64,000 nt of DNA from Minisyncoccota bacterium (GCA_021734905.1 JAIPIB010000001.1:2230-66229), one strand, 5' to 3'. Counted from the stretch's first letter, positions 2,965 through 55,755 are shown. The notes: a model not told the origin generated them from the sequence alone. Numbers and translations are program-made.

Positions 2965-5880
2965 ATGATCACCACAATTATTAAAAGGAATGGAATGTCA
3001 GTTCCTTTTGACCCAACAAAGATTGTTATCGTTATGAAAAAGGCATTTGCTGCAGAGCAGGTACCTGTTGATGATGACGCTCTTGAACAAATGACGGGTC
3101 GTGTGGTGGTGAGTCTTGGAACGCTGTGTGATGGAAAAGAGAACTGTCCAACAGTTGAACAAGTTCAAGACCTTGTCGAGAACACACTCATGGAGCGAGG
3201 ATATTTTTCTGTTGCAAAGGCATACATTTTGTATCGCTTCCAGCAAAGCGAGGAGCGAAAACAGGAGGTGGTCAAAGAAATCGAAGAACAACGCCTTACT
3301 ATTGAAAGAACAGATGGGAGTATTGAACAATTTTCACGAGAGAAGATGCGTGAGTATCTTCAGGAGTTTACTGAGGGATATGCGGGTGATATTGATTTTG
3401 ATGATTTTGTTTCACAGATAGAGCGTGAAGTGTACGACGGAATCAAAACAAGTGAAATGGCGAAACTTGTTACACTCGTACTTCGGTCGCGAATTGAAAA
3501 TGATCCTGCATATTCAATTGTTGCTGCACGACAACTCTGTAGGCGTATCTCAGATGAAGTCGTTGGAAACTTAAGCGCAATACCCAAAGCAGAGCGGGTA
3601 GCAGCGTATCGTAATGCATTTGTACGAAACATAAAACGTGGCGCTGAAGCAAAGAAGTATGACTCCGTACTTCTTTCATATGATCTCGAAAAGCTTTCTG
3701 CCAGTATCGAACCAGGGCGAGATGATCTTTTTAAATATATTGGTATTGAAACACTCAATGATAGGTATTTTGTTCGTATCGATGGAAAAAAACTTATCGA
3801 AACCCCACAGATGATGTGGATGCGTATTGCGATGGGACTCGCCCTTAACGAGAAAAATAAAGAAGAACGTGCTGTTGAGTTTTACAATATTATGTCTCTT
3901 ATGCACTTTATTCCGTCAACCCCGACATTGTTTCATGCCGGAACGCCGCATCCACAGCTATCATCATGTTATTTAAATGTTGTTGAAGATGACCTTACAC
4001 ATATTTTCAAAGTGTATGGCGACAATGCAATGCTTTCAAAGTGGGCTGGTGGTATTGGGACAGCATGGAGCAAACTTCGAGGCACAGGAGCACTCATTAA
4101 AGCTGCGGGGATTACTTCGCAAGGTGTGATTCCGTTTCTTAAGATCGCCAATGACGTAACGGTCGCAATTAATCGTTCGGGTAGACGCCGAGGTGCAACT
4201 GCAGTGTATATGGAAAACTGGCATATTGATTTTGAAGATTTTCTTGAGCTGCGGAAAAATACTGGTGATGAACGGAGACGTACTCATGATATGAATACTG
4301 CAGCATGGATATCCGACCTTTTCATGAAGCGAGTTCGGGAAGATGGTCAGTGGACACTCTTTTCACCCGATGAGGCAGCAGACCTTACAGAGACATACGG
4401 AAAGCAATTTGATGAATTGTACGAAAAATATGAAGGAATGGCTGATGTGGGTGAAATCAAACTCTTTAAGAGAGTCAAAGCAAGGGATCTTTGGCGACGA
4501 ATGCTCGGCATGTTGTTCGAGACAGGACATCCTTGGATTACCTTCAAAGACCCATCAAATATTCGATCACCACAAGACCATGCAGGAGTGATTCATAGTT
4601 CAAATCTCTGTACAGAGATCACCCTCAATACCTCAGCGGAAGAAACTGCTGTATGTAATCTTGGGTCAGTTAACTTTCCACGACACATCATAAACGGAGT
4701 TTTTGATGAACAGATGGTGAAGCAAACAGTTACGACCGCAATGCGTATGCTTGACAATGTCATTGACCTTAACTTTTATCCAACGGTCGAGGCGCGAAAT
4801 TCGAACATGAAGCATCGACCTGTTGGACTTGGCATCATGGGCTTTCAAGATGCATTGTATATGCAAAATATCCCGTTTGGCTCAGACGCCTGTGTTGAAT
4901 TTTCTGATGCATCTATGGAAATTATTTCATATTATGCAATATTGGCGTCAACAGAATTGGCTCGAGAGCGGGGTATGTATCAAAGCTATAAAGGCTCGAA
5001 GTGGGATCGCGGAATTTTTCCAGTCGATACAATCGCACTCCTTGAAGATGAACGGGGGATTTCCACAGGAACTGACTGTACTGAGCGCCTCGACTGGGGA
5101 GTTGTGAGAGATGCTGTAAAACAGTACGGTATGCGCAACAGTAATACTATGGCAATTGCACCAACGGCTACTATTGCAAACATTGCAGGATCAATTCCTG
5201 GGAATGAGCCAATCTATAAAAATATTTATGTAAAGTCGAATATTTCAGGTGACTTCGTAATTGTAAATTCGTATCTCGTAGAAGATCTCAAGAAGGACGG
5301 ATTATGGGATGATGAAATGCTTCAAGCAATTAAATATAATGATGGAAGCCTTGCAGATATTCCAAGTGTGCCTGTTGAACTTAAGGTTAAATACAAAGAA
5401 ACGTTTGAAATCGATATGAGGTGGCTTGTTAAGGCTGGAGCAAGTCGAGGAAAATGGATTGATCAGTCACAGTCACTCAACATATTTTTCAATGGAACGT
5501 CAGGAAAAGAGCTTTCTGAGTTGTATATGTATGCATGGGAGGCTGGACTCAAGACAACATATTATCTCAGATCCCTTGCTGCGACACAGGTTGAAAAATC
5601 AACAGTTGGCAATGAAGGAACACACCTCCGAAAGGATTCTGATGCTGGAAGAACCCCAGACGCAGCATTTAATACGGCAGTTATTCCTGGCACAGCTTTT
5701 GTTCGAAAGGAAACATCTTCAGTGCCTGTTGCACAGACTACTGATCCTATTCCTTCACCAATGCCAACTCCGTCACCGTTTACCAAGGGTATTCGAGAAA
5801 AAGAGAAGGTTGAATTAAAGAATAAATCTGCGGTGAAACTCCATATTGCAGAGGACGCTATTTGCGAGTCTTGTCAATAA
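2965..5880 (+). CDS. nrdA: ribonucleoside-diphosphate reductase class I alpha subunit
   Basis: N-terminal ATP-cone (IIKRNG..), catalytic core motifs (LSSCYLNVVEDDL, NLCTEITLNTS..AVCNLGSVNF), C-terminal redox Cys pair (..ICESCQ); followed by nrdB. Confidence 0.9.
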   Translation: MITTIIKRNGMSVPFDPTKIVIVMKKAFAAEQVPVDDDALEQMTGRVVVSLGTLCDGKENCPTVEQVQDLVENTLMERGYFSVAKAYILYRFQQSEERKQEVVKEIEEQRLTIERTDGSIEQFSREKMREYLQEFTEGYAGDIDFDDFVSQIEREVYDGIKTSEMAKLVTLVLRSRIENDPAYSIVAARQLCRRISDEVVGNLSAIPKAERVAAYRNAFVRNIKRGAEAKKYDSVLLSYDLEKLSASIEPGRDDLFKYIGIETLNDRYFVRIDGKKLIETPQMMWMRIAMGLALNEKNKEERAVEFYNIMSLMHFIPSTPTLFHAGTPHPQLSSCYLNVVEDDLTHIFKVYGDNAMLSKWAGGIGTAWSKLRGTGALIKAAGITSQGVIPFLKIANDVTVAINRSGRRRGATAVYMENWHIDFEDFLELRKNTGDERRRTHDMNTAAWISDLFMKRVREDGQWTLFSPDEAADLTETYGKQFDELYEKYEGMADVGEIKLFKRVKARDLWRRMLGMLFETGHPWITFKDPSNIRSPQDHAGVIHSSNLCTEITLNTSAEETAVCNLGSVNFPRHIINGVFDEQMVKQTVTTAMRMLDNVIDLNFYPTVEARNSNMKHRPVGLGIMGFQDALYMQNIPFGSDACVEFSDASMEIISYYAILASTELARERGMYQSYKGSKWDRGIFPVDTIALLEDERGISTGTDCTERLDWGVVRDAVKQYGMRNSNTMAIAPTATIANIAGSIPGNEPIYKNIYVKSNISGDFVIVNSYLVEDLKKDGLWDDEMLQAIKYNDGSLADIPSVPVELKVKYKETFEIDMRWLVKAGASRGKWIDQSQSLNIFFNGTSGKELSELYMYAWEAGLKTTYYLRSLAATQVEKSTVGNEGTHLRKDSDAGRTPDAAFNTAVIPGTAFVRKETSSVPVAQTTDPIPSPMPTPSPFTKGIREKEKVELKNKSAVKLHIAEDAICESCQ

Positions 5881-5987
5881 TGCCAGCGTATTTTTGAATG
5901 GTATACTGTGCTACCTAATTATTAACAATGCGGGGTAAGGCGAGTTGGAAACGAGACTCTCTGAACTCATAATAAAAACTAAGCAGC

Positions 5988-7022
5988 ATGTCGATAACAA
6001 AGAATGCACCACCAGTTGATATCAATAAGCGACGAGCCATAAATGGTGAGGACGCGGATGTTATTCAGCTCTATCCAATGAAGCACGCGTGGGCTTGGGA
6101 GTATTATAATGCCGCAAATGCCAATCACTGGCTTCCGACTGAAATTAGCATGCAGCTTGATATTGAGCAGTGGAAATCAGCCACTGTATTAACGACAGAT
6201 GAACGTCACGCATTTGAAACTGTTCTTGGTTTCTTTACTACAGCCGACTCAATTGCAGCAAACAATATAACTATTGCCAACTACCGGCATATCACAAGTC
6301 CAGAAATTCGAATGTATCTATTACGCCAGGCATATGAAGAGGCCATTCACACCCATGCATATCAATATATCGTTGAGTCACTAGCAATGGATGAGTCAAA
6401 GATTTTCAATATGTATCGTGAACGAGACGCAATCTATAATAAAGCGAGTTTTATTTTGTCATTTAATGAGGGTATTTTTGACCCAACGTTTAAAACAGGG
6501 ACATTTGAAAATGACCAAAAATATCTTGAGAATCTCTGTGTCTTCTCACTCATTCTTGAGGGGATATTCTTTTACAGTTCGTTTGCGGTGATGTTTGGTT
6601 TTCAACGGCAGCATAAATTAACTGGTTCTGCAGAACAAATTCAATACATCATGCGCGATGAATCGATGCACCTTAACTTTGGATGTCAGCTTATTAACAC
6701 AATCAGGGAGGAACAACCAGAACTTTGGACGAAAGAATTTCAAGATAAAATCGTCGGATACATCAGAGAAGCAGCTCGTCTTGAATATACCTACGCACAA
6801 GAAGTATTTCCTGCAGGAATATTTGGTATGAATGCTGCTGGATTTAAACAGTATATTGAACATATTGCTGATCGTCGGTTGGAGCGAGTGGGACTTCCAG
6901 AACAATTTGGTGTCACAAACCCGTTCCCATGGATGAGTGAAGCAATCGACCTTCCGAAAGAAAAAAACTTCTTTGAAACAAGGGTGACTGAGTACAAAAC
7001 AGGTGGTGCACTCAATTGGTGA
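5988..7022 (+). CDS. nrdB: ribonucleoside-diphosphate reductase class I beta subunit (di-iron/tyrosyl radical R2)
   Basis: R2 iron-ligand motifs EEAIHTHAY and DESMHLNFG, ferritin-like helix pattern; immediately downstream of nrdA. Confidence 0.9.
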   Translation: MSITKNAPPVDINKRRAINGEDADVIQLYPMKHAWAWEYYNAANANHWLPTEISMQLDIEQWKSATVLTTDERHAFETVLGFFTTADSIAANNITIANYRHITSPEIRMYLLRQAYEEAIHTHAYQYIVESLAMDESKIFNMYRERDAIYNKASFILSFNEGIFDPTFKTGTFENDQKYLENLCVFSLILEGIFFYSSFAVMFGFQRQHKLTGSAEQIQYIMRDESMHLNFGCQLINTIREEQPELWTKEFQDKIVGYIREAARLEYTYAQEVFPAGIFGMNAAGFKQYIEHIADRRLERVGLPEQFGVTNPFPWMSEAIDLPKEKNFFETRVTEYKTGGALNW

Positions 7023-7040
7023 CCAAGAATCAACGAGCAG

Positions 7041-7107
7041 CGCGGCTATGATTATTGAGTCTGTCGCAAAATTCTATTCATAATGAATTTTGTGACGGAC
7101 AGAATCC
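7041..7107 (+). repeat. REP-like element, variant with TATTCATAATG loop (stem gtcgcaaaattc / gaattttgtgac with a G-U pair on + strand)
   Basis: Hairpin with conserved loop shared with copies at 34211-34279, 47800-47866, 19905-19950, 37390-37425; 5' box gctatgattattgag resembles the agcgactatattttctgag box of other copies. Confidence 0.6.
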
Positions 7108-7154
7108 AACTTATGCTGGGCTCCACATGGTGTAGAGAATAGCCCATTATTCTA

Positions 7155-7213
7155 GCGATTATGTCGAATTTATGTCCAGATTTGCTCTTTCCTAGAGCTA
7201 ATTGCTGGACGAC
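7155..7213 (+). repeat. REP-like element, B-variant (gcgattatgtcgaatttatgtcc..hairpin..attgctggacgacc)
   Basis: Shares 5' box GCGAyTATnnnGAATTTnTGTCC and 3' box CGCTGGAC with copies at 9181, 9589, 19801, 56161, 56957. Confidence 0.6.
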
Positions 7214-7365
7214 CAGAAAATAAAGATAGATGTAGATATTTTTGAGGACGAAGCGAAGCATCACGAGTTGTTGTATAGCGAAAATAAGGAACCGAAGGGT
7301 TTAAAAACTGAATACAATCAAACTCTTGAAAGCAAATCCGACAGTGGTTTGATATACTTATAATA

Positions 7366-8298
7366 ATGCGCTTATTAATTCTTATAGGCATACTTATCGC
7401 TACTCTCTTCGGGAGCGGTTTTTGGTATGCTTATATTGATATGGACTGTAAGCTGCCAGTTAAATACAAAATTGGAAATATTGATGAGCGATTTGGTACT
7501 GATGTTAATGAATTAAAAAAGATTGTCGCAAAAGCAGAGACGGTGTGGGAGTCTGCGTTGCAGACAGAATTGTTTGCGTATGATGAAAATGCCTCATTAT
7601 CTATAAATCTCGTTTTTGATGAACGACAAGAGGCCTCTGATAGAGAGGCAGAGTTAAGAGATGATCTACAGATAAAAGAAGGAATGAGTGAAAGTGTTGC
7701 AGAGCAATATACTGAATTGGTTGGTGAATATAGAGCCCTTAAGAAGTCATATGAATTACGTGTTGGAGAATATGAAGAAAAACTTAGTAAACATAATATC
7801 CAGGTTACTGATTGGAATAATAAAGGAGGAGCCCCACAAGATGTTGTCGACAAGTTAGGTGAAGTGCAGAAAGCACTTACGGAGGAACAAAAATCAATTG
7901 AGGGACTTGCAAAGAAGCTTAATCAGTTTGTTGTGCAACTTAATGCAATTGGAGTGAGGGGGAATTCGCTTATTACTGACTACAATGCTGTGGTCAATAA
8001 ATATAATGAACATTTCAAAGAGGTCCAAGAATTTACACAGGGCGATTACACTGGGAAAGCGATCGATGTGTATCAGTTTAATTCTGAAGATGAATTGACG
8101 ATTGTGCTCGCTCATGAATTCGGGCACGCCCTCGCACTTGGACATGTACAAAACGAAAAATCAATCATGTACTTTCAGATGAACGCTCAGGAAGTGTTGG
8201 AAGGGTTGAGTGCTGAGGATATGAACGAATTTACACAAGTGTGTAGTCAAAGAACTCTTGTTCAGCAGATTGCCGTGTGGTTAAAAAGCATTTTGTAA
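7366..8298 (+). CDS. matrixin-like zinc metalloprotease (peptidase M10 family), N-terminal TM anchor
   Basis: HEFGHALALGH = HExxHxxGxxH zinc-binding consensus followed by Met-turn region (SIMYF); N-terminal hydrophobic helix. Confidence 0.7.
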   Translation: MRLLILIGILIATLFGSGFWYAYIDMDCKLPVKYKIGNIDERFGTDVNELKKIVAKAETVWESALQTELFAYDENASLSINLVFDERQEASDREAELRDDLQIKEGMSESVAEQYTELVGEYRALKKSYELRVGEYEEKLSKHNIQVTDWNNKGGAPQDVVDKLGEVQKALTEEQKSIEGLAKKLNQFVVQLNAIGVRGNSLITDYNAVVNKYNEHFKEVQEFTQGDYTGKAIDVYQFNSEDELTIVLAHEFGHALALGHVQNEKSIMYFQMNAQEVLEGLSAEDMNEFTQVCSQRTLVQQIAVWLKSIL

Positions 8299-8370
8299 GG
8301 TCTTTGCTCTTTTGAATGGGATAGAGTACGATTATTCTCAAGTTAATAATATATAAATTATCAAAAAAGT

Positions 8371-11083: not shown

Positions 11084-11569
11084 TTAACGTCCAAGTATGA
11101 CCCATGTATAAGGTGGTTCGTGTTCTGGATGATTTTCTTCTTTTAATACCTGTGTGAACATTGAATAGTCAGGAAAATAAGCGTCGGCTTCTCCGTCCTC
11201 TGCGTCAATGACAGTCAAGTAGAGTCTATCAGCCAAAGATATTGTTGAATCGTAGACACGAGCACCCCCAAAAATAAATATTTCGTCATGCTCAATTTCG
11301 TGAGCTTTTTCTAGCGCCGCATCAAGTGAAGTAACGACGATACAACCATCAATTTTTATAGGGGCGGAAGAGAGAACAATATTGGTCCTTCCGGGAAGTG
11401 GCCGCCCGATTGATTTATAGGTATTTAAACCCATAATTATTGGATGACCCATGGTAAGGGCTTTTACTCGCTTGAGATCATCACTAATACGCCAAATAAG
11501 CTCGTTTTTCTTCCCAAGCTCACGATTTCTGCCAACTGCAGCAATAATACTTATGCGAGGGATTTTCAT
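11084..11569 (-). CDS. folA: dihydrofolate reductase
   Basis: ISIIAAVGRNRELGKKNELIW..PIIMGLNTYKSIGRPLPGRTNIVLS matches DHFR consensus. Confidence 0.8.
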   Translation of the reverse strand: MKIPRISIIAAVGRNRELGKKNELIWRISDDLKRVKALTMGHPIIMGLNTYKSIGRPLPGRTNIVLSSAPIKIDGCIVVTSLDAALEKAHEIEHDEIFIFGGARVYDSTISLADRLYLTVIDAEDGEADAYFPDYSMFTQVLKEENHPEHEPPYTWVILGR

Positions 11570-11598
11570 TTGTAAATTATGGCATATTTCTTACGCTT

Positions 11599-12174
11599 TT
11601 GCCTCTTGAGAGATGGTTCCCTGTTCGCTATACTTTACGTATGGCAATTAACACGGGTATTTTTGGGGACACAACAAGTTTTGATCATCGATATATTAGT
11701 GATCATGTCAGACTTGAAGAGTTGGTTAAGTATTGGAAAAAACTTGGTCTTCGTATCGTGCTTACCTCAGGAACATTTGATCTATTTCACATCGGTCATG
11801 CACAATATTTAGAGAAAGCAAAAAGTTATGGAGACCTCCTTATTATCGGAGTCGACAGTGATGCAAAGGTAAAAGAACGGAAAGGCCCACATCGTCCTGT
11901 TGTACCTGAACTCGAGCGTGTCCAGATACTTTCTCATTGTCGACATGCAGATGTCATAACGCTAAAAGATGCTAGTGACCCTAAAAATCATCTTATTAAA
12001 ATAGTTTCCCCAGATGTCCTTGTTGTTTCAAAATCAACAAAACATGAAGATGGTGAGGTTGATGAAAAGGCCCAGTACTGTGGTGAGATCGTTATCCTTG
12101 AACCACAATCAGAAACATCGACAAGTGCAAAACTCAGGCTTATTCAGATAACGAGTGATGATAATGCAAAATAA
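11599..12174 (+). CDS. cytidylyl/adenylyl-transferase family protein (RfaE domain II / TagD-like nucleotidyltransferase)
   Basis: GTFDLFHIGH (GxFDxxHxGH nucleotidyltransferase motif) and ..GVDSDAKVKERKG..RPVVPELER.. pattern like HldE adenylyltransferase domain; true start may be Met at 11641. Confidence 0.6.
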   Translation: MPLERWFPVRYTLRMAINTGIFGDTTSFDHRYISDHVRLEELVKYWKKLGLRIVLTSGTFDLFHIGHAQYLEKAKSYGDLLIIGVDSDAKVKERKGPHRPVVPELERVQILSHCRHADVITLKDASDPKNHLIKIVSPDVLVVSKSTKHEDGEVDEKAQYCGEIVILEPQSETSTSAKLRLIQITSDDNAK

Positions 12175-13024
12175 AATTGCTATTGCGTATGTCCCTATTT
12201 TACATCAGGGCTATTTTTCATTCCTCAAGACTCTTGAAGAAGAAGGAGTTAAAATTTTATATTTAGTTTCAGATGATATTCTCATGTCCCATGAAGAACT
12301 CGACTATATCAATCGAAAAGATAGAATTCGAGCACTTCCTCATGAGGTTATGAAGCAACAGCTCTCATTACTAACTACAATGACAATTGATTCGCTTACT
12401 TCTGAAAAAATTCTTTTTTTGAAACAAGAATCAGCTAGCTTGGTCATGCCACGAGAGGATGTAAATTTATTTCTTGCAGAAACATATTTTGCAGAGTGTG
12501 AGATTGAGTATCTCAATATTTTTCTACGTATCAATCGAGAAAATTCAGGGGAGGGAAATATTCCAGAACATACAGAAATGGCATCATCAGAATTTGAGAG
12601 GAGCACAATGGCTTTAGTTGTTAAAGAGGCGACAAAATCTGCTGATTGGTGGAAACAAGTTGGCGCTGTTCTTGTAAAAGACGGTAAAGCAATTTTCCCA
12701 TCACATAATGAGCATATGCCTGATGAGGAGATTCCAAACGTTTTTGGTGACTTGCGCTCGCTTTATAAAAAAGGAGTTAATATAAACTATTCGACTGCAG
12801 CCCATGCGGAGATTGGAGTCATTGCAGAAGCTGCACGACAAGGCATATCAACACAGGGTGCTGAGTTCTTTGTAACGGATTTTCCATGTCCCTATTGCTC
12901 AAGACTTATCGCAAAAAGTGGAATTAAAAAAGTATATTATCTCAAGGGGTATGCCGTTCTTGAGGGAGACGAATTCTTCAAACAAATGGGGGTTGAAACG
13001 GTGAAGGTTGATGTCTCAGAATAA
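12155..13024 (+). CDS. dCMP/cytidine deaminase-fold protein with ~140-aa uncharacterised N-terminal domain
   Basis: C-terminal zinc-binding CDA motifs HAEIGVIAEAAR and PCPYCSRLIAKSGIKKVYY; N-terminal half has no recognisable motif; overlaps previous gene by 20 nt (operon). Confidence 0.65.
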   Translation: MMIMQNKIAIAYVPILHQGYFSFLKTLEEEGVKILYLVSDDILMSHEELDYINRKDRIRALPHEVMKQQLSLLTTMTIDSLTSEKILFLKQESASLVMPREDVNLFLAETYFAECEIEYLNIFLRINRENSGEGNIPEHTEMASSEFERSTMALVVKEATKSADWWKQVGAVLVKDGKAIFPSHNEHMPDEEIPNVFGDLRSLYKKGVNINYSTAAHAEIGVIAEAARQGISTQGAEFFVTDFPCPYCSRLIAKSGIKKVYYLKGYAVLEGDEFFKQMGVETVKVDVSE

Positions 13025-13071
13025 AAAACACGCGTCGAGTTTGGAAACCCGACGCGCTTTTTCCAGAAAGA

Positions 13072-13602
13072 TCAAACGGGGAATTCACCCGCTTCGTACC
13101 GAGTTGCAAACTCGGCTGCCCGCACCTTGTTCTTTTCACGATCTTTCGGATCTTTGAAGACAGGGATCTTCACTTCGCCGGTACCGTTCGGTATCCAGTA
13201 ATTCCAGTGTAGGTGAGGGACAGTGCCGGCGTTATCATTCATGGGGCCGAAACGCACGTGCAGATTCCCACCTTTGCCTAGCGAGTATTTTCCCTCAGTA
13301 CCTTCAATCCACTGGATAACGCGGAAGAAATCCAGCCACGCCTCTTCGGGGAGTTCTTCGAGGAAACGTACGTGCCACTTGCACACGATGACGAGTTGAA
13401 CCATGAGCGTTTTGCGCGGATATGGATTTTCCCAGACCATCCAGCTTTCATCCTCATAGAGGATGGTGTTGGTTTTGGTATCAACATTGCAGAATGGACA
13501 GGCTTCGGATTCAAAGCGTTTCCGCATTTCGAAGTATTGCTCGTAGTCTCTGCATCCTTCTAGGCAAAAGAGTTCTTCATCGGTGAGAACATGTTTTTTC
13601 AT
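13072..13602 (-). CDS. HIT-superfamily protein, divergent (motif HLHWN, GalT-like branch?)
   Basis: CPFC zinc-knuckle then ..VPHLHWNYWIP where third His of HxHxH is replaced; paralog of adjacent HIT gene. Confidence 0.5.
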   Translation of the reverse strand: MKKHVLTDEELFCLEGCRDYEQYFEMRKRFESEACPFCNVDTKTNTILYEDESWMVWENPYPRKTLMVQLVIVCKWHVRFLEELPEEAWLDFFRVIQWIEGTEGKYSLGKGGNLHVRFGPMNDNAGTVPHLHWNYWIPNGTGEVKIPVFKDPKDREKNKVRAAEFATRYEAGEFPV

Positions 13603-13690
13603 CAGGGATTCCTCCAGAGAATTTGAAACAAAAAAAGATCAGGGAAGACCTGATCATCTTTATATATTATAACATTATTCTGATCGAAAA

Positions 13691-14167
13691 TCAAATCTTC
13701 CAACCAAGCTTCACGCGAATAGCTTCGTCTGTTTCGTTTTGGGTTCCACCAACTATGAGGTGTGCGTGAAGATGTTCTACACTACTGCCGTTGTAAGCGG
13801 TATCACCAAAACGCATAAAAAAGCTTCCACCTTGAATGTCATAAGTGGTTGTTGCCCAGTCAAGAAGAGAGTAAAGATCTTTGAGAGCGCCAGAGTCCAT
13901 TTCTTGAGTTTTTGTAATATGTGAAGGCTTGTATACAAAAAGAAAGTGGTATTTTGTTCCTTCGTAGGGACTCATGTTTTCGGTTACAAACCAAAAATCA
14001 GTTTCTTCCAGAATTGGTTTGGGATGATATTTAGTGAAGTGCTCAGCACAAAAAGGGCAGACACCATCTGACTCAATCTTTGCCATAAGATTTTTTTGTT
14101 CATCAGTTCGAGCGTTCGCATGAACAAGACCTGTTTTGGATGGGATGTTCATAATTTTATATTGCAA
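13691..14167 (-). CDS. HIT-family hydrolase (histidine triad)
   Basis: CPFC motif and canonical HxHxHxx triad VEHLHAHLIVGG; overlaps thyA stop by 11 nt. Confidence 0.65.
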   Translation of the reverse strand: MQYKIMNIPSKTGLVHANARTDEQKNLMAKIESDGVCPFCAEHFTKYHPKPILEETDFWFVTENMSPYEGTKYHFLFVYKPSHITKTQEMDSGALKDLYSLLDWATTTYDIQGGSFFMRFGDTAYNGSSVEHLHAHLIVGGTQNETDEAIRVKLGWKI

Positions 14168-15050
14168 CAGGAATTCCTCTCATCGATTCGCCCGCTTCGT
14201 ATTCACTGAGTTCAAAGTCAGTTGCGCGGATTGTAAAAATATCTTTTGTTGGATTGATAAGCGAAACGGTAGGGAATGGTTTTGTTTCCCTTGCGAGAAG
14301 TTCTTCAACCATAGGAATTTGATCAACATAGATATGTGCATCAGAAATAGTATGTACATATTCATATGCTTCGTAACCTGTTGACTGCGCAATCATCATG
14401 GTAAGTGCTGCGTATTGAATCATGTTTGAAGGGACTCCAACAGGTACATCACCTGAGCGCTGAAACATGTGGAGAATAAGTTTACTGTCGATGATACGGA
14501 TATGGATCCAACCATGGCACGGGCAAACAACAACCTTTTGTTGTTTGCCCGTGCCTCGTATCGTGTATTGTGGCACCCACGGGGAAATGAAGTGAGTTCG
14601 AAGCTCTGGGAATTCTTGTATCTGCTCAACAATATTTTTGAATTGATTAAAAGTAGGCCCTTCCGAGGTGGGAAAGTCATGGAACGCACCGCCGTATGAT
14701 CCTGGACCAAGGTCACCCTCTTCGAGTCCGCGTTTTTCACATTTTTCTTTTGTGCCCCAAGGTGTCCAGAATTTACATCCATACGACTCAAGAGCTTCGA
14801 GTGTTCGTGCGCCATTCATAAACCCAATGATTTCTCCGACTGCCTGTTGCCAAAAACCCTTTACACTACGTTCGGTAATCATAGGGAATCCGTTTTCAAA
14901 TCTGAAGTGCATTGGGGTAGCTCCCATGAGAGTAAGTGCATCAGTGCCTTGCCGACTTGGCGTACGTATTCCTTTTTCTAAGATTTCTCGGAGCAGATTT
15001 TTGTATTGCTCATCAGGAGTACGTTCTGTGTATGGTTTCATCATATACAC
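14157..15050 (-). CDS. thyA: thymidylate synthase (ThyA family)
   Basis: N-terminal EKG..R..GTD..LMG...RF..GFP; active-site VVCPCHGWIH (Cys nucleophile), SGDVPVGVPSNMIQYAALT (Asn present, dUMP-type), C-terminal ..IPVAI. Confidence 0.8.
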   Translation of the reverse strand: MYMMKPYTERTPDEQYKNLLREILEKGIRTPSRQGTDALTLMGATPMHFRFENGFPMITERSVKGFWQQAVGEIIGFMNGARTLEALESYGCKFWTPWGTKEKCEKRGLEEGDLGPGSYGGAFHDFPTSEGPTFNQFKNIVEQIQEFPELRTHFISPWVPQYTIRGTGKQQKVVVCPCHGWIHIRIIDSKLILHMFQRSGDVPVGVPSNMIQYAALTMMIAQSTGYEAYEYVHTISDAHIYVDQIPMVEELLARETKPFPTVSLINPTKDIFTIRATDFELSEYEAGESMRGIPVAI

Positions 15051-15108
15051 ATCATGATACTTGATTTGTAAATGAAGTGAAACTAACGGGCGGTGTTAAA
15101 ATATAAAT

Positions 15109-15534
15109 ATGATGAAAATGCAAGTTGTACGCCTTAATGACTCAGCAAAATTGCCACAATTTGCGCATGATACAGATGCGGGAATGGATCTGTTTTGTAA
15201 TGAGGTCATTGTCGTCGCTTCTGGTGAAAGAGTGCAAATTAAGACGGGGATTGCTGTAGCAATTCCTGATGGACATGCTGGTCTTATTTGGGACAAGAGC
15301 GGACTTTCACAAAAATATGGTTTAAAAACCCTTGGCGGTGTTATTGATTCAGAATATCGTGGTGAAATCATTGTTGGAATGGTGAACTTGGGTCAGGACT
15401 CGTATACAATCCAGGTTGGTGATAAAATTGCACAGATACTTATCCAGAAAGTTGAACATCCAAGTATAGAAGAGGTTACTTCGCTCGAGGAGACTCTTCG
15501 CGGAGAAAATGGTTTTGGAAGTACAGGAATTTAA
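15109..15534 (+). CDS. dut: dUTP diphosphatase
   Basis: Dut motifs (AGMDL, GVIDSEYRGEI, C-terminal GFGSTG). Confidence 0.85.
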   Translation: MMKMQVVRLNDSAKLPQFAHDTDAGMDLFCNEVIVVASGERVQIKTGIAVAIPDGHAGLIWDKSGLSQKYGLKTLGGVIDSEYRGEIIVGMVNLGQDSYTIQVGDKIAQILIQKVEHPSIEEVTSLEETLRGENGFGSTGI

Positions 15535-15587
15535 ATATGATTTAACGAACTAACATACGAAGTTTATTAAACAATAGTATTTTTGAT

Positions 15588-16853
15588 ATGAATTACGAAT
15601 ATATAGAGAAACAAGACAAAGAAGTGTTTGGGGCAATACAAGGAGAAGAGGAGCGGGAAGCGAAGGGGTTTGAGCTTATTCCAAGTGAGAACTATGTGTC
15701 GCGAGCCGTTCGCGAAGCGAACGGCTCAGTGTTTACGAATAAATATTCAGAGGGGTATCCGGGGAAGCGATACTACGGTGGTCAGGAATTTACCGATGTT
15801 GTCGAGACGATCGCAATTGATCGTGCAAAAAAACTTTTCAACTGTGCATATGCAAATGTGCAGCCACTCTCAGGAGCGCCTGCAAATGCCGCAATGTATT
15901 TTGCTCTCCTTGAGCCAGGGGACACCGTTCTTGGTATGGACCTCTCCCATGGTGGACATCTTACACATGGTCATCCAACCACTTCAATTAACAAAGTCTT
16001 CAATTTCGTACGGTACAAGATGAAGGACGTGAACACTGGTGAGATTGATTATGACCACCTTAGACAAGTTGCGCTCGAGCATAAACCAAAAGTCATTCTC
16101 GCGGGATTTTCTGCATATAGCCGAGAACTCGATTATGCGAAGTTTGTAGAAATTGCGAAAGAGGTTGGAGCATACACTGTTGCTGACATGGCGCATATTG
16201 CGGGCCTGATTGCAGGTGGTGCGGCACGGAATCCATTTGATGATGGCTTTGATGTTATTACGACCACAACACATAAGACTCTCCGAGGTCCCCGTGGCGG
16301 AATGATTCTTACCCGTGAGAATGAAGAAATTTCAAAGAAAATCAATAAGACAGTGTTCCCGGGAATGCAGGGAGGGCCACACATGAATATTATTGCAGGG
16401 AAGGCGGTTGCTTTTGGGGAAGCAATGAGCCCAAAGTTTAAAGTGTATGCCGTACAAATTCTAAAAAATGCTAAAGCGATGGAAGCTGTATTTCACACTG
16501 CGGGCATCCGTATGCAGGGAGGAGGGACATCAAACCACCTCATTCTTGCGGATGTCTTTGGCTCACTCGGAATTTCAGGAAAGGAAGCGGAAGTTGCTCT
16601 TGATGCGATTGGCATCACACTCAACAAAAACATGATTGCAGATGAGACGCGTACTGCAATGGATCCTTCAGGTATTCGATTTGGCACACCAGCAATGACA
16701 ACCCGTGGGATGAAAGAAGAGGATTCAACGAAAGTCGCTGAATTCATGGTCGCCAGACTCAAAGATCACACAAGTGAATCAAAGGCACAAGAACTCAAAG
16801 CAGGAGTTGAAGCACTTTGTGCAAAGTTTCCAATTCCTGAAGTGATGGTGTAG
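15588..16853 (+). CDS. glyA: serine hydroxymethyltransferase
   Basis: LIPSENYVS, PLP-Lys region TTTTHKTLRGPRGG, canonical SHMT. Confidence 0.9.
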   Translation: MNYEYIEKQDKEVFGAIQGEEEREAKGFELIPSENYVSRAVREANGSVFTNKYSEGYPGKRYYGGQEFTDVVETIAIDRAKKLFNCAYANVQPLSGAPANAAMYFALLEPGDTVLGMDLSHGGHLTHGHPTTSINKVFNFVRYKMKDVNTGEIDYDHLRQVALEHKPKVILAGFSAYSRELDYAKFVEIAKEVGAYTVADMAHIAGLIAGGAARNPFDDGFDVITTTTHKTLRGPRGGMILTRENEEISKKINKTVFPGMQGGPHMNIIAGKAVAFGEAMSPKFKVYAVQILKNAKAMEAVFHTAGIRMQGGGTSNHLILADVFGSLGISGKEAEVALDAIGITLNKNMIADETRTAMDPSGIRFGTPAMTTRGMKEEDSTKVAEFMVARLKDHTSESKAQELKAGVEALCAKFPIPEVMV

Positions 16854-20481: not shown

Positions 20482-23400
20482 ATGCTTATTATTATGTCTG
20501 ATATACATAACCATATGGATACAAATAAAGAGGATGAGAAGAGTGATGTTGCGCGTCGTGAAGAGGATGTTCTGGCGTTTTGGAACGAGCGCGATATTTT
20601 TAATAAAAGTCTAGAAAAGGAATCACCGAATGGTGATTTTGTGTTTTATGACGGTCCACCGTTTGCGACGGGGACTCCCCACTACGGGCATATTCTTGCG
20701 GGGACAATCAAAGATGCTATTCCAAGGTTTTGGACAATGAATGGATACCGCGTGAAGCGGAAGTGGGGTTGGGACTGCCATGGTCTTCCCCTTGAAAATA
20801 TTATTGAGAAGAGGCTTGGACTTGCAACAAAGAGGGATATTGAAGAACTTGGCGTAAAGAAATTTAACGAGGCTGCACGGGATGCAGTGCTTGAGTATGA
20901 GGATGACTGGAAAGTGGTCGTGCCACGAATGGGACGGTGGGCAGACATGGAACATGACTACAAGACAATGGATTCAACATATACCGAATCAGTATGGTGG
21001 GTTTTTTCTGAACTTAACCGTAAGGGGCTTGTGTATGGAGGATTTAAGTCAATGCACCTCTGTCCACGTTGTGGTACTACACTCTCAAACTTTGAGGTGA
21101 ATCAGGGATACAAAGATATCAAGGATATTGCTGTAACGGTAGAACTTCCACTTCTTGATGAGGAAGGAAAAATCACTGACACATCTCTTCTTGTGTGGAC
21201 GACGACTCCGTGGACACTTCCAGGGAACATGGCTGCAGCAGTGCACAATGATATTGAGTACGTAGTAGTTGAAAAAAAAGATGAAGGTGAGGGAGAATTA
21301 GTGCGCTTCATTGTTGCAAAAGGCAGACTCGAAGCAATTTTCGGAGGTCAGGAATACACCATCGTCGAGGAGATAAAAGGAAGTGAGCTTGTGGGAAAAT
21401 CATATCAACCTCCTTTCGACTATTTTCAGAAACAAGAATTTCAACATAAAGAAAAGGCATGGAAAATTTACCACGCAGACTATGTTGAGCTTGGTGAGGA
21501 TGGAACAGGCGCGGTACATATTGCTCCTGCGTATGGAGAAGAGGATATGGAGCTCGCAAAAAAAGAAGGATTTCCTATCATGCACCATGTTGATGAGTTG
21601 GGACACTTCAAAGATTTTGTAACTGATTTTAAGGGGCAGTTGGTTAAGCCAAAGGATGATGACGATGCTGGAGTAACTCACCTTGAGGCCGATATAGAGA
21701 TTGTTAAGGCCTTGAAAGTATCCGGAAAATTGTTTCAAAAGGAAAATATTACGCACTCGTATCCACACTGTTGGCGATGTGACACTCCGCTTATTAACTA
21801 CGCAACAACATCATGGTTTGTTCGTGTAACTGATCTCAGAGATCGTCTTGTCGAAGAGAACAGTAAGGTATGCTGGGTTCCTGAACACGTCGGGAGAGCA
21901 CGATTTGGAAAATGGCTTGAGGGTGCTCGTGACTGGGCAATATCACGACAACGCTATTGGGGAGCACCACTGCCAATTTGGAAGAATCAAAAAACTGGTG
22001 AAGCAAAAATTATTGGTTCACTCAGTGACCTCCAGCAGTATGTTCGAAAAACTGGGAATTCGTATTTCCTCACACGTCATGGAGAATCAGAATTTAATAC
22101 GAAGTGGATTTTGAACGGGACCACTGGTGTTGAAAACGGACTTACTGAAAAAGGGAAAGAACAAGTTGACACTGCTTCAGCAATTCTTAAAGATGAAAAG
22201 ATAGACCTTATCTACCACTCTCCACTTGAAAGAACAACCGAGACAGCGCTAAAAATTGCACAAACACTCGGACTTGGAGAGGACTCACTTATTGCAGATG
22301 ATCGTTTGAAAGAGATGCAATTTGGTGAATTTGAGGGAAAAGAAGTCAATGATTATCTAGCCTTCTTTGGGAGTGGCTACAATCGACTTATTATGCATCC
22401 TGAGGGCGGTGAGTCATGGAGTGATGTGAAACGACGCGTTGGAGCATTTCTTTATGAAATAGATTCAAAACACACGGGGAAGCGTATTCTCATTGTTTCT
22501 CACAATGGTACGCTTCAAATGCTTCAGGCAGTTGCACAAGGCCTTGAACATGAGAGACTAGGCCATCTCGTTGGAGAAGATAGACTCGATATACAGAACG
22601 CAGAAGTTCGAGCGTTTTCATTTGTTCCAATGCCACATAACGACGATTACGTTCTCGATTTTCACCGGCCATACATTGATGAGATTGGACTCGTTGATAC
22701 AGATGGAGAAATTATGAAACGCATCCCCGACGTCTTTGATTGTTGGTTTGAGTCTGGCTCTATGCCGTATGCACAAAACCACTACCCATTTGAAAATAAA
22801 GATGTTTTTAACGCAGAGCAAGGGCGAGGGTTTCCGGCACAATTTATCGCGGAAGGCCTCGACCAAACCCGAGGATGGTTTTACTCACTTATTGTTTTAG
22901 GAGTGTCACTCTTCGGTAAGTCGCCCTACGAAAACGTTATTGTGAATGGCCTTGTTCTTGCCGAAGACGGAAAGAAGATGAGTAAACGTTTACAGAATTA
23001 CCCAGATCCGATGGAACTTGCTGATCGGGTTGGCGCCGATGCGATGCGGTACTACCTTCTTTCTTCGTCGATTGTTCGTGGGGAAGATCTTAATTTCTCA
23101 GAAAAAGAAGCACTTGAATTGCAGAGAAAAAATATTGGACGCCTTCACAACGTACTCGCGATGTATCAAATGTATGCGGACGAAGGTATCGCGCCAAGTA
23201 ACAGCTCAGAGAACCCACTTGACCGGTGGATACTTTCTCGAACAAATGAAATGCTTCGTGACGTTACAGTAGGATATAAGAATTACGAGCTCGACAAAGC
23301 AACACGTCCAATCGCAGACTGCATTGAGGATCTCTCAGTCTGGTATTTGCGCCGTTCTCGTGAGCGCTTGAAGGGGGGTGATAGCAATGATAAAAAACAC

Positions 23401-53025: not shown

Positions 53026-53071
<46 letters not shown>

Positions 53072-53639: not shown

Positions 53640-53671
<32 letters not shown>

Positions 53672-55646: not shown

Positions 55647-55676
55647 CGATGTCGGCTCAACTTATCCTGGGGCTGG

Positions 55677-55712
<36 letters not shown>

Positions 55713-55717
55713 AAGTT

Positions 55718-55755
<38 letters not shown>

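Follow-up and report, generated by a model that had tools for sequence, protein, structure and literature searches.

A thyA-linked nucleotidyltransferase, deaminase fusion and HIT protein in Patescibacteria and their possible role in dUMP supply

The closest described counterpart of the locus reported here is the dCMP-deaminase route of Gram-positive bacteria (ComEB) and phage T4 (cd), taken together with the T4 dNTP-synthesis set. As in those systems, genes for ThyA, dihydrofolate reductase (DHFR), dUTPase, serine hydroxymethyltransferase (SHMT) and a zinc deaminase are clustered with ribonucleotide reductase nearby, and the catalytic residues of the core enzymes are identical to those of the ComEB/T4 route. 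The textbook and T4 pathways have no counterpart, however, of the nucleotidyltransferase (NTase) or of the one or two HIT proteins encoded at this locus, and the deaminase differs from ComEB and T4 cd in lacking the structural-zinc cap and NA motif and in carrying a private, predicted HUP-like N-terminal domain. Anti-phage dCTP deaminases share with this fusion protein the arrangement of a nucleotide-binding N-domain followed by a deaminase, but their N-domain is kinase-like and unrelated, and their context is defence rather than housekeeping thymidylate synthesis. Zinc dCTP deaminases used for comparison included the chlorovirus dCMP-dCTP deaminase and vertebrate CDADC1 (PMC12184417 and general knowledge). 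The DCD-DUT enzymes of archaea and mycobacteria would have the same net reaction as the one we infer below; DCD-DUT is a single trimeric dUTPase-like protein, whereas the module is a three-protein set of NTase, zinc deaminase and HIT protein with another fold and mechanism.

The locus lies in a 64,000-nucleotide stretch of a Candidatus Pacebacteria MAG, the whole of which is referred to as the window. No description of the module was found in the literature searched. Linked uncharacterised enzymes beside thymine-synthesis genes suggest an undescribed step that supplies thymidylate synthase in the ultra-small Patescibacteria. The reading that we consider best, with a probability of roughly one in three, is of a Patescibacteria-specific thymidylate module in which the NTase, the deaminase fusion and one HIT protein (HIT-B) act on cytosine deoxynucleotides and feed dUMP to a canonical ThyA.

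Gene organization and the thymidylate enzymes

The eight open reading frames of an initial annotation of positions 11084-16853 are all present where it placed them, with their predicted identities borne out (Table 1). It was also right about a nearby nrdAB (nrdA 2965-5880, nrdB 5988-7022), which lies 4 kb upstream and is set apart from the module by unrelated genes. Two start codons needed revision: the NTase gene, placed from TTG 11599, most likely begins at ATG 11641, as in public annotation (P0390), and the fusion gene, placed from 12155, at ATG 12164 (286 aa, P0001), where it overlaps the NTase gene (stop codon 12172-12174) by 11 nt. The junction of thyA and HIT-B also depends on the start chosen. 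With TTG 14167, which has a Shine-Dalgarno-like GAGAGGA 7 nt upstream, the genes overlap by 11 nt, and the alternative ATG 14152 (public annotation P0121, 153 aa) lies 4 nt past the thyA stop codon; thyA and HIT-B are tightly coupled whichever start is used.

Table 1. Features of the module and its context in the window
Feature	Coordinates	Strand	Supporting match
folA, dihydrofolate reductase, 161 aa	11084..11569	-	DHFR_1 PF00186, 8e-44
NTase, RfaE-II/HldC- and ECT-like nucleotidyltransferase, 177 aa	11641..12174	+	PF01467 CTP_transf_like, 1e-18
Fusion protein, N-terminal domain, ~120 aa	12164..12529	+	Family without existing model; PxxHxGY
Fusion protein, zinc-deaminase domain, dCMP-deaminase clade	12596..13024	+	PF00383, 4.6e-16
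Bidirectional intrinsic-terminator-like hairpin, 12-bp stem, 7 G-C pairs	13030..13057	.	Between the convergent fusion and HIT-A genes
HIT-A, divergent HIT-superfamily protein, 176 aa	13072..13602	-	Pfam HIT E=0.0037, below gathering score
HIT-B, HIT-superfamily protein, 153-158 aa	13691..14167	-	Pfam HIT E=7e-4, below gathering score
thyA, canonical thymidylate synthase, 297 aa	14157..15050	-	PF00303, 1.6e-62
dut, trimeric-type dUTPase, 141 aa	15109..15534	+	4.5e-30; TIGR00576
glyA, serine hydroxymethyltransferase	15588..16853	+	PF00464, 6e-152
nrdA (with ATP-cone) and nrdB, class I ribonucleotide reductase, context only	2965..7022	+	

Gene overlaps had been read as a sign of operon-wide co-expression. 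The tight coupling stands, but the genes form at least four transcription units rather than one operon: folA (-), NTase-fusion (+), thyA-HIT-B(-HIT-A) (-) and dut-glyA (+). folA and the NTase gene are divergently transcribed from a 71-nt spacer, and the strong terminator hairpin separates the convergent fusion and HIT-A genes. Additionally, the gap between HIT-B and HIT-A holds a second hairpin (13637-13655) and a promoter-like site (13694-13666), possibly HIT-A's own. HIT-B lies on the strand opposite to the NTase-fusion pair, and we infer their co-expression in the window.

Sequence comparison shows thyA, folA, dut (or MazG) and glyA to be, in all likelihood, typical textbook dTMP-cycle enzymes. 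For example, ThyA scores 177 bits against TIGR03284 (cut-off 108), carries two lineage-typical insertions and conserves E58, W80, C146, H147, R166, S167, D169, N177, D205 and H207 of the E. coli enzyme. It is thus predicted to be a canonical dUMP methylase with a complete active site, so that dUMP would be the metabolite that the module must supply. The dUTPase scores 145.6 bits against TIGR00576 (cut-off 102.6). In L003 and L005/L006, where dut was not found, thyA and glyA flank a gene for a MazG-family protein of 109-113 aa, which in L005/L006 immediately follows thyA. The proposal that the region and nrdAB provide every step from rNDP to dTMP is not borne out by the 64-kb window, in which neither NDP or NMP kinases nor a source of dCMP turned up.

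Phage base-modification pathways bring together thyA homologs, deaminases and enzymes that handle nucleotides, and the accessory enzymes here are likewise uncharacterised; synthesis of a non-canonical or hypermodified DNA pyrimidine is nonetheless very improbable. ThyA retains all catalytic residues, including N177 for dUMP, and is accompanied by DHFR, which the methylation reaction alone requires. Conservation and genomic context are of the housekeeping type, no phage contig carrying the fusion or the module was found, and PHROG and PADLOC gave no links beyond generic deaminase and RfaE matches. Of the three roles that had been suggested (salvage, dinucleoside-polyphosphate proofreading and nucleotide modification), modification is the least likely, because the ThyA active site is canonical and the module occurs on no phage contig.

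Conservation across lineages

We compared 23 close loci with 10 distant (Microgenomates-type) loci, in which the fusion protein is 32-39% identical. The initial annotation had tied its case to conservation of the neighbourhood and to the extra genes lying outside well-characterised families. The neighbourhood is kept in relatives, and the extra genes are not ordinary family members, because the HIT proteins score below threshold, the N-domain has no relative and the NTase falls below the RfaE-II cut-off. The eight-gene island with nrdAB survives only in part. Its NTase (9/10), fusion (10/10), HIT-B (9/10) and thyA (8/10) persist in distant loci, whereas glyA, nrdAB and unrelated flanks such as nusG, rplK and argS are found in none of the ten; the island is partly inherited synteny, which leaves a functional core of fewer than eight genes. 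Among close loci, HIT-B occurs in 20, glyA in 15 and folA in 21 of 23, and folA is kept in five distant loci. HIT-A is absent from the distant loci and is a lineage-specific duplicate of HIT-B, limited to closer Paceibacteria-type loci. Across lineages, then, the comparison shows the NTase, the deaminase fusion and HIT-B as genetically locked to thyA.

In nearly all loci the NTase gene is directly upstream of the fusion gene, and as a rule the two overlap. In a natural fusion from two independent assemblies (P0017), the NTase is joined through a 12-aa linker to the N-domain and deaminase, and in another lineage (L039) overlapping genes run kinase-NTase-HIT-deaminase about 1 kb from folA-thyA. 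These arrangements show a probable translational coupling of NTase and deaminase protein, with fusion in one lineage. The functional link among NTase, deaminase and HIT protein is stronger than the initial annotation could know, because of the end-to-end fusion in one lineage and the NTase-HIT-deaminase operon in another. Median identities in close loci are 87% for thyA, 82% for glyA, 79% for the NTase (on par with both), 66% for HIT-B, 63% for dut and 47% for folA, which points to strong purifying selection on NTase and HIT-B.

Genes for folA, dut and tmk are often near the distant-lineage core. Apa-type HIT enzymes can use an enzyme-NMP intermediate to make NDP or NTP, and tmk and ndk are both absent from the window, so one could imagine that NTase and HIT, working by way of a dinucleotide, replace thymidylate kinase or NDP kinase in producing dTDP or dTTP from dTMP. 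This is scarcely credible: it leaves the deaminase fusion without a role, the window is only 64 kb of the genome, and the standard thymidylate kinase encoded no more than a few kb from the module in seven distant loci largely refutes it.

Nucleotidyltransferase, deaminase fusion and HIT proteins

The NTase is, by its motifs (FHIGH, RKGPxRPVVPE and TSTSAK, all intact), a predicted member of the HIGH (cytidylyltransferase-like) superfamily. It matches TIGR02199 (rfaE_dom_II) at 1e-30, with 106 bits falling below the 181-bit cut-off, and its best PDB matches are ethanolamine-phosphate cytidylyltransferase (ECT; 3elb, 2e-17) and the heptose-1-phosphate adenylyltransferase RfaE-II/HldC (5x9q, 6e-14). 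The HxGH and (S/T)TS motifs are common to all three, and the NTase can be aligned over its full length to RfaE-II and to both domains of ECT. Since ECT consists of two tandem cytidylyltransferase (CT) domains, an NTase followed by the NTase-like N-domain, whether fused or separate, mirrors its CT-CT layout. Unlike in ECT, the second 'CT' carries HxGY and no C-terminal signature, and only weak evidence from fold and profile comparison identifies it; unlike in both ECT and RfaE-II/HldC, the assembly is joined to a deaminase and no lipid or heptose genes adjoin it.

The claim of a novel N-terminal domain on the deaminase stands, as residues 1-147 of the fusion matched nothing in Pfam, NCBIfam or PDB sequence searches. 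All 383 clusters of this domain are at the N-terminus of deaminase proteins and it is found only there; PxxHxGY is conserved in 95 of 100 representatives. An AlphaFold2 model (pLDDT 85, pTM 0.79) predicts a five-stranded Rossmann/HUP-like fold. Foldseek, suggested for this domain by the initial annotation, returned no match at E<=1e-3 (E=0.012), with best probabilities for PPAT (4nah, 0.97; 3otw, 0.93, TM 0.51) and PanC (0.80). Alignment to the NTase family with hhalign (E=0.074) placed LHxGY on FHIGH, and the domain is without the second NTase signature.

The dCMP_cyt_deam_1 (PF00383) match is limited to fusion residues 148-263, for which the closest PDB entry is a dCMP deaminase (4p9c, 6e-14). 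Its HAE and PCPYC motifs are widely kept (HxE in 98 and PCxxC in 97 of 100 representatives). Relative to the features of the dCMP-deaminase clade (PMC3239186), the strand-2/helix-2 cap is remodelled into a GDxR...G insert without the structural-zinc cysteines, Cys-free in 65 of 77 representatives and modelled at low pLDDT (residues 188-215), and the canonical GYNG/NxxP region is altered. The C-terminal half of the deaminase domain matches anti-phage zinc dCTP deaminases (NF041025, 2e-19; PADLOC dCTPase, 1.6e-21) slightly better than ComEB (3.5e-15), the match covering only ~85 residues with 70 bits against a cut-off of 400.

HIT-A and HIT-B are true paralogs, as proposed (30% identity, E=4e-12). 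Both have CPFC near the N-terminus, and conserved upstream histidines accompany the HIT histidine motif. The window's two proteins fall below the Pfam HIT threshold, and Pfam HIT is found in 32 of 40 HIT-B members. Against Hint proteins of solved structure the two score no better than E=1e-3 to 0.04, and the HIT-B profile matches Hint, Fhit and GalT in the PDB at best at E=2e-3 to 0.2. HIT-B had been called canonical. Its triad is HxHxH in this genome, as in the Hint branch of hydrolases, but among 120 orthologs the third position is Q in 68 and H in 50, and HxHxQ is the triad of the GalT/Apa branch of nucleotidyl transferases and phosphorylases. With Q and H interchanging among orthologs, HIT-B departs from both branches; HIT-A has HxHxN (19/20). 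GalT has two domains, whereas these proteins are single domains of ~150 aa. Some HIT-B orthologs are labelled 'ATP adenylyltransferase' at JGI.

The HxHxQ orthologs, this label and the RfaE-II similarity of the NTase would fit a Leloir-like NDP-sugar or NDP-alcohol pathway of kinase, RfaE-II-type NTase and GalT/Apa-like HIT protein, in which the deaminase converts CDP-X to UDP-X and the thyA link is incidental. An APH-family kinase preceding the NTase and a GT4 glycosyltransferase following the operon in L039 agree with it, but the module has no such genes in the window or the other loci, where the persistent neighbour is thyA and not envelope genes. None of the HIT-B members scores high enough for the GalT or Apa families of Pfam, and we know of no precedent for CDP-sugar deamination. 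We consider this pathway improbable.

A further hypothesis, in our judgement only a little less probable than the reading we consider best, is loose co-location. The fusion would be a plain dCMP deaminase whose N-domain is an allosteric sensor of dCTP/dTTP in place of a lost canonical regulatory site, HIT-A and HIT-B would be Hint-like housekeeping hydrolases (dNDP/dNTP to dNMP, or clearing of NMP adducts), the NTase would make an NDP-sugar or NDP-alcohol for the envelope, and the neighbours would merely be co-regulated. Indeed, the top matches of the deaminase domain are dCMP deaminases, a new regulatory domain is plausible because the GYNG/NxxP region is altered, the N-domain has no second NTase signature, the top NTase families are RfaE-II/HldC, ECT and TagD, and the HIT proteins fit Hint-type structures best, though weakly. 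End-to-end fusion to a deaminase and the usual gene overlap are, however, unexpected of an envelope enzyme; no heptose or teichoic-acid genes adjoin the module in the window; and NTase, HIT-B and fusion remain with thyA after other synteny is lost, forming a single operon in L039.

A proposed route from cytosine nucleotides to dUMP

A lack of de novo nucleotide synthesis is widely attributed to the lineage that carries the module, and these bacteria are taken to rely on imported nucleotides. HIT enzymes of the Hint, Fhit, DcpS and aprataxin families typically cut NMP-X conjugates. A salvage role close to earlier suggestions would accord with both: the three proteins would take cytosine nucleotides that carry modifications or conjugates and stem from the breakdown of foreign DNA or RNA (such as 5-methyl-dCMP, 5-hydroxymethyl-dCMP, NMP adducts and dinucleoside polyphosphates) and turn them into usable dUMP or dTMP. 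The remodelled cap could fit bulkier substrates, and a TatD-family DNase gene lies within the window. We regard salvage as unlikely, since the NTase makes conjugates rather than cutting them and has no obvious part in it, its very high conservation points to a central rather than a clean-up role, and nothing connects the deaminase with 5-substituted cytosines.

In the preferred reading, the NTase, fusion and HIT-B would work as a single unit on cytosine (deoxy)nucleotides that hands dUMP to ThyA. The N-domain would be a degenerate HIGH-type nucleotidyltransferase fold pairing with the NTase like the tandem CT domains of ECT. Using (d)CTP, the NTase may form an NMP-X conjugate by transferring (d)CMP to an acceptor that bears a phosphate, or may present the nucleotide to the deaminase. 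The deaminase, free of the zinc-supported cap by which canonical dCMP deaminases are confined to a small free nucleotide, could then convert C to U on a larger or differently phosphorylated substrate, and the histidine nucleophile of HIT-B would remove the (d)UMP group by hydrolysis or transfer to phosphate, leaving dUMP or dUDP next to ThyA. Overall, dCTP would become dUMP with release of PPi and NH3, and no free dUTP would arise.

Several observations weigh against this route. The similarity between N-domain and NTase is weak (TM ~0.5 and the E values above), and a carrier cycle is more complex than a plain dCMP deaminase or a bifunctional dCTP deaminase-dUTPase. With dut or MazG still there, free dUTP is dealt with anyway. 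The nearest characterised relatives of the NTase work with ATP and heptose-1-phosphate (RfaE-II/HldC) or with CTP and phosphoethanolamine, and neither activity is a nucleotide conversion; Q/H switching in HIT-B gives no clear signal of hydrolase versus transferase; and in the window HIT-B is encoded on the strand opposite to the NTase-fusion pair. On the other side, linkage of NTase, fusion, HIT-B and thyA survives in distant loci that have lost the flanks, and the P0017 fusion and L039 operon join the proteins directly. Purifying selection appears strong, with HIT-B more conserved than dut and folA, and FHIGH/TSTSAK, HAE/PCxxC and the HIT histidines are intact. The N-domain is exclusive to the deaminase, has its best fold probabilities with HIGH-type nucleotidyltransferases and aligns its HxGY with HxGH; the deaminase, judged by the definition of its clade, has a remodelled cap; and ThyA, with its canonical active site, needs dUMP.

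A gene module tied to thyA across the lineage

All eight ORFs that the initial annotation grouped into a thymidylate-synthesis island are present in the window, and profile searches confirm their broad identities. Besides folA, thyA, dut and glyA, they encode an RfaE-II/ECT-like nucleotidyltransferase (NTase), a fusion of an N-terminal domain (N-domain) to a zinc deaminase, and two HIT proteins, HIT-A and HIT-B. The nrdA and nrdB genes, said to lie nearby, were also found, separated from folA by a zinc-protease-like gene, SIMPL, secE, nusG and rplK. Database proteins with 100% identity to those of the window belong to a Candidatus Pacebacteria MAG (Patescibacteria/CPR). DHFR, dUTPase, SHMT and class I RNR all score above curated cut-offs. 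ThyA reaches 177 bits against TIGR03284 (cut-off 108) and 1.6e-62 against PF00303, and compared with E. coli ThyA (E. coli numbering) it keeps E58, W80, the catalytic C146, H147, the dUMP-binding residues R166, S167, D169 and N177, as well as D205 and H207. Because all of these are kept, we read it as a dUMP-methylating thymidylate synthase, which fits the adjoining DHFR. A hydroxymethylase or dCMP-specific homolog is ruled out, as every dUMP-methylase residue is present and DHFR is adjacent.

Features of the window and of related loci, with occurrence of module and flanking genes in close and distant loci
Feature	Sequence	Position (strand)	Close loci	Distant loci
nrdA / nrdB	window	2965-7022	5/23 / 6/23	0/10 / 0/10
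folA	window	11084-11569 (-)	21/23	5/10
Promoter-like site	window	11606-11641 (+)		
NTase	window	11641-12174 (+)	23/23	9/10
Fusion	window	12164-13024 (+)	23/23	10/10
HIT-A	window	13072-13602 (-)		absent (n=10)
HIT-B	window	13691-14167 (-)	20/23	9/10
thyA	window	14157-15050 (-)	18/23	8/10
dut	window	15109-15534 (+)	11/23	4/10
glyA	window	15588-16853 (+)	15/23	0/10
nusG, rplK, SIMPL, M10, DUF2914, argS			12-19/23 each	0/10 each
IleRS-like synthetase	window	20482-24048 (+)		
23S rRNA gene	window	52472-56030 (+)		
Group I intron in 23S rRNA gene	window	55328-55603		
tRNA match	window	56566-56683 (+)		
Insert between thyA and glyA	L001 (Kaiserbacteria relative)	11162-13152		
MazG-family gene	L003 (relative)	14959-15288		
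MazG-family gene	L005 (relative)	6956-7297		
tmk in line with folA and dut	L029 (distant relative)	3561-5573		
APH-family kinase, NTase, HIT, deaminase	L039 (third lineage)	5430-8357 (one strand)		

To examine gene order in relatives, 33 loci from reference genomes, and further ones obtained by exact-protein look-up, were all searched with the window proteins. In the close set (n=23) the fusion is 50-67% identical to that of the window, and in the distant set (n=10, Microgenomates/Woesebacteria-type) it is 32-39% identical; 'Saccharibacteria', 'Pseudomonadales' and 'Acidimicrobiales' in several MAG titles are depositors' labels. The recurrent order in the close set is folA(-), NTase(+) and fusion(+), HIT-A(-), HIT-B(-) and thyA(-), dut or MazG(+), and glyA(+). 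The unrelated nusG, rplK and argS recur there too, so that part of this conservation is inherited synteny. For the glyA, nrdAB and ribosomal/argS flanks we accept that explanation. For NTase, fusion, HIT-B and thyA, mere inherited synteny is ruled out by their persistence in the distant loci. Of the proposed neighbourhood, this core is therefore what stands in relatives, while glyA and nrdAB drop out of every distant locus. A lineage-wide gene module ties NTase, the N-domain-deaminase and HIT-B to thyA.

The linkage extends to very divergent sequences. The NTase and fusion genes overlap in 3/3 very divergent representatives, and thyA adjoins them in two of these three, the two with long enough contigs. 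A natural fusion, P0017 (467 aa, in two independent assemblies), joins an NTase 86% identical to that of the window, through a 12-residue linker, to the N-domain and deaminase; no further NTase fusion occurs among the best 120 matches. These arrangements indicate that NTase and the deaminase protein are translationally coupled, and in one lineage fused. In a third lineage, on the 288-kb contig of locus L039, the NTase, HIT and deaminase genes follow an APH-family kinase gene and overlap one another at their stop and start codons, in an operon about 1 kb from folA-thyA. There, hhalign relates the HIT protein to HIT-B with a probability of 92.7 and the deaminase to the fusion's subtype with 99.2; the deaminase carries a different N-terminal extension of about 165 aa. 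In the closer loci, median identity to the window proteins is 87% for thyA, 82% for glyA, 79% for NTase, 66% for HIT-B, 63% for dut, 54% for the fusion, and 47% for both folA and HIT-A. NTase is constrained like a core enzyme, and HIT-B is more conserved than dut or folA.

Several loci depart from this arrangement. A small MazG-family protein of 109-113 aa is encoded between thyA and glyA in L003 and L005, directly after thyA in L005/L006, and dut was not found in these MazG-carrying loci; this suggests that in some relatives MazG has taken over the (d)NTP pyrophosphatase step from a protein to which it is not homologous. The two genes inserted in L001 encode a Vut_1 (YhhQ-type transporter)-SnoaL fusion and an F420_ligase-family (CofE-like) protein, which may be connected with cofactor or folate handling. 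A standard thymidylate kinase gene lies a few kb from the module in seven distant loci (L029, L031, L032, L035, L036, L037, L038). In the particular case of L029 the order is dut, folA, small ORF, tmk, with recR beyond tmk and nadD-nadE on the opposite side of the module. In L039, HVGQ replaces HIGH in NTase, the HIT protein has a canonical HxHxH motif, and a GT4 glycosyltransferase gene follows the operon on the opposite strand.

By homolog alignments and public annotation, NTase starts at ATG 11641 and the fusion at ATG 12164, not GTG 12155; with these starts, an 11-nt overlap of the fusion gene with the NTase stop codon remains. For HIT-B there are two candidate starts: TTG 14167, with GAGAGGA 7 nt upstream and an 11-nt overlap with thyA, and ATG 14152, the annotated start, 4 nt past the thyA stop codon. 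Of the two overlaps from which co-expression had been proposed, that of NTase and fusion holds, that of thyA and HIT-B depends on the start chosen, and the region comprises at least four transcription units. Consensus matches alone mark a bidirectional terminator-like hairpin (12-bp stem) where the fusion and HIT-A genes converge, another hairpin plus a promoter-like site in the HIT-B/HIT-A gap, and a promoter-like site before NTase (TTGAGA, 17 nt, TATACT; 10/12 matches) that ends 7 nt before ATG 11641. If the last were functional, the NTase mRNA would be leaderless. No known RNA element or riboswitch was detected in the module region at gathering thresholds or at E<=1. The 64-kb window is part of a contig at least 205 kb long, so that any absence of genes such as ndk or a canonical comEB would apply to the window.

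Families of the accessory proteins

NTase belongs to the cytidylyltransferase-like (HIGH) superfamily, scoring 68 bits against PF01467 (gathering cut-off 21). The signature of this superfamily is HxGH plus a C-terminal (R)TxGISTT-type motif; in NTase, FHIGH and a C-terminal ETSTSAK are conserved in all loci, and RKGPxRPVVPE is also retained. The best NCBIfam match is RfaE domain II (1e-30), in line with the RfaE-II-like label first given to it. However, the 106 bits obtained against TIGR02199 fall under the equivalog cut-off of 181.5, and the heptose-biosynthesis context of an RfaE-II/HldC heptose-1-phosphate adenylyltransferase (HldE kinase domain, GmhA/GmhB) is missing, with no heptose genes near the module in any locus with genes or ORFs examined. 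The closest solved relatives are ECT (both tandem domains), HldC-type 5x9q, 3glv and TagD.

The fusion is 286-289 aa long, and the dCMP/cytidine deaminase zinc domain matches residues 148-263 only. As the initial annotation proposed, residues 1-147 form an N-terminal domain without any Pfam or NCBIfam match. No relatives by sequence were found in a PDB profile search, in Pfam at E<=10 over 23 members, or in NCBIfam. The domain is as conserved as the deaminase domain, and its AlphaFold2 model is a confident one (pLDDT 85, pTM 0.79) that shows a five-stranded alpha/beta fold. When 1.84 billion representative proteins were searched exhaustively with its profile, 383 clusters were found to carry it at E<=1e-3, always N-terminally and with no other architecture seen among them; Pfam finds the deaminase in 6/6 full-length members checked. 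Even among members that share just 31-42% identity, P14, H17 and G19 never vary, and a PxxHxGY motif, present in 95/100 representatives, directly follows the first strand, the position of HxGH in HIGH-type nucleotidyltransferases. Foldseek against the PDB, suggested earlier as a check, gave no significant match; its top probabilities, 0.97 and 0.93, were for phosphopantetheine adenylyltransferases (TM up to 0.51), with pantoate-beta-alanine ligase also among the most probable. Profile-profile comparison with the NTase family places LHxGY on FHIGH and RKDRLRA-LP on RKGPHRPVVP, a weak match (E=0.074).

In the deaminase domain, the zinc-ligand motifs are HAE (217-219) and PCPYC (244-248), with HxE in 98/100 and PCxxC in 97/100 full-length representatives. 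Anti-phage dCTP deaminases carry an N-terminal kinase-like domain and occur in a defence context. In contrast, the fusion has a different N-domain and a housekeeping context, scores 70 bits against 400 for NF041025 over residues 190-277 only, and matches the PADLOC dCTPase at 194-275 only. A phage or defence origin was rejected, as no viral contig encodes the fusion and PHROGs/PADLOC give generic deaminase and RfaE matches only. The ComEB equivalog TIGR02571 is likewise not reached (56 bits, cut-off 219). In a survey of deaminases (PMC3239186), the dCMP-deaminase/ComE clade is defined by HxE and PCxxC zinc-ligand motifs, a cysteine-rich zinc-binding insert capping the active site, NxxP ending strand 2, an NA motif after HxE, and a Tyr between strand 4 and helix 4. 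The fusion's deaminase shares HxE and PCxxC with the clade so described, but lacks the cysteine-rich cap insert. Its own insert has no Cys in 65/77 representatives and has instead a family-specific GDxR...G, modelled by AlphaFold with low confidence. The Asn and Pro remain, though with NxHxP spacing (N185...P189); HAEIGV contains no NA motif, and the Tyr is present (G265-Y266). The fusion's deaminase is thus unlike characterised dCMP deaminases in its substrate cap.

HIT-A and HIT-B are paralogs (30% identity, E=4e-12), and no solved HIT protein resembles either of them nearly as closely. Both belong to the HIT superfamily. The window copies match Pfam HIT at E=0.0037 (HIT-A) and 7e-4 (HIT-B); the two scores, 20.6 and 18.3, narrowly miss the gathering cut-off of 21.5. 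Of the HIT-B members, 32/40 match PF01230. Their best solved Hint-type relatives score E=1e-3 and 0.04 (2e-3 with the HIT-B family profile), and the HIT-B profile finds only HIT-fold proteins in the PDB, with GalT 6k5z at E=0.18. The superfamily motif is H-phi-H-phi-H/Q-phi-phi, with the middle His as nucleophile and conserved His residues upstream. HIT-A has HLHWN, and HxHxN recurs in 19/20 of its orthologs. HIT-B was initially called canonical, which is true of the window copy (HLHAH), but the family motif is HLHAQ, with HxHxQ in 68/120 orthologs against HxHxH in 50/120; HIT-B orthologs are 63-77% identical. These Q and N variants and the distant similarity do not fit ordinary Hint, with its strict HxHxHxx. 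HxHxQ, common to most HIT-B orthologs, recalls the GalT/Apa branch, yet here it interchanges with HxHxH, and HIT-B has one domain only, about 150 aa long, whereas that branch has a two-lobed or duplicated architecture. None of 40 HIT-B members matches PF01087, PF02744 or PF09830, and DUF4931_N gives faint matches in 2/40. The sub-threshold HIT scores, the RfaE-II score below cut-off and the unmatched N-domain bear out the expectation that the two HIT proteins, NTase and the N-domain fall outside ordinary well-characterised families.

Possible roles beside thymidylate synthase

We infer the functions of the accessory proteins from sequence, predicted structure and gene context. Catalytic motifs are intact in NTase, the deaminase and HIT-B. 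HIGH-type nucleotidyltransferases join NMP from NTP to a phosphorylated acceptor, and HIT enzymes remove NMP from conjugates via a histidine-NMP intermediate. This family chemistry suggests a relay, our leading reading with a probability of about 0.35, in which the three proteins would act sequentially on cytosine deoxynucleotides to yield dUMP. NTase would join NMP from NTP to a phosphorylated acceptor, the deaminase, acting between NTase and HIT, would turn C to U on the conjugate, and the HIT enzyme would take NMP off through its histidine-NMP intermediate, for a net conversion of dCTP to dUMP + PPi + NH3. A more specific version, which we consider quite unlikely, would have the ECT-like NTase, paired with its own degenerate copy, use (d)CTP to load a carrier phosphate with (d)CMP; the cap-less zinc deaminase, fused to the degenerate NTase copy, would make the carried cytosine uracil, and the HIT-family enzyme would unload dUMP beside thymidylate synthase.

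In the main rival reading, the fusion would be an ordinary dCMP deaminase that has gained a new allosteric domain, and NTase and HIT would each do something else. That NTase and deaminase can be fused, and that the trio stays together, speaks against this rival, which we still rate as only slightly less likely than the relay. We rank lower a role in salvaging or sanitising scavenged nucleotides, an NDP-sugar pathway and DNA hypermodification. That NTase and HIT stand in place of thymidylate kinase is essentially refuted by tmk lying beside the module in the seven distant loci.

Few biological pathways are better mapped than thymidylate synthesis, and we classify the present case as a known pathway carrying an undescribed, conserved accessory set: three uncharacterised enzymes held beside thymidylate synthase across a large, poorly understood, minimal-genome radiation. 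No description of the cluster or of the N-domain family was found in the open-access papers and bioRxiv preprints searched, and the available portion of the 2011 survey of deaminase architectures (PMC3239186) contains nothing resembling them. Public labels of these proteins are 'rfaE domain', 'dCMP deaminase', 'HIT/Ap4A hydrolase' and 'hypothetical'. If the trio does act together, it would represent new dUMP production or control, or a new dCMP-deaminase regulatory architecture; if it works through a nucleotide-conjugate intermediate, it would add another route by which the thymidylate precursor is made, a new one, and give the N-domain family its first function. A test would be direct, needing four small soluble proteins, and its outcome would sharpen metabolic reconstructions of Patescibacteria and give functions to hundreds of protein clusters.

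Other features of the window

The 1188-aa IleRS-like protein is a class I aminoacyl-tRNA synthetase (tRNA-synt_1 and Anticodon_1) whose core is split at residues 529-696 by a histidine-phosphatase domain (PF00300, E=4.6e-37). Because a 1180-aa protein on the contig of a distant relative (that of protein P0268) has the same PF00133, PF00300, PF00133... layout, the insertion is conserved and no assembly artefact. The 23S rRNA gene exceeds the model by about 630 nt and carries a group I intron (RF00028, 92.8 bits, E=1.6e-22), while the search found no 16S rRNA gene in the window. Between 23S and 5S lies a tRNA match of 118 nt, which covers the whole 71-position model at 37.7 bits and may contain an insertion or intron.
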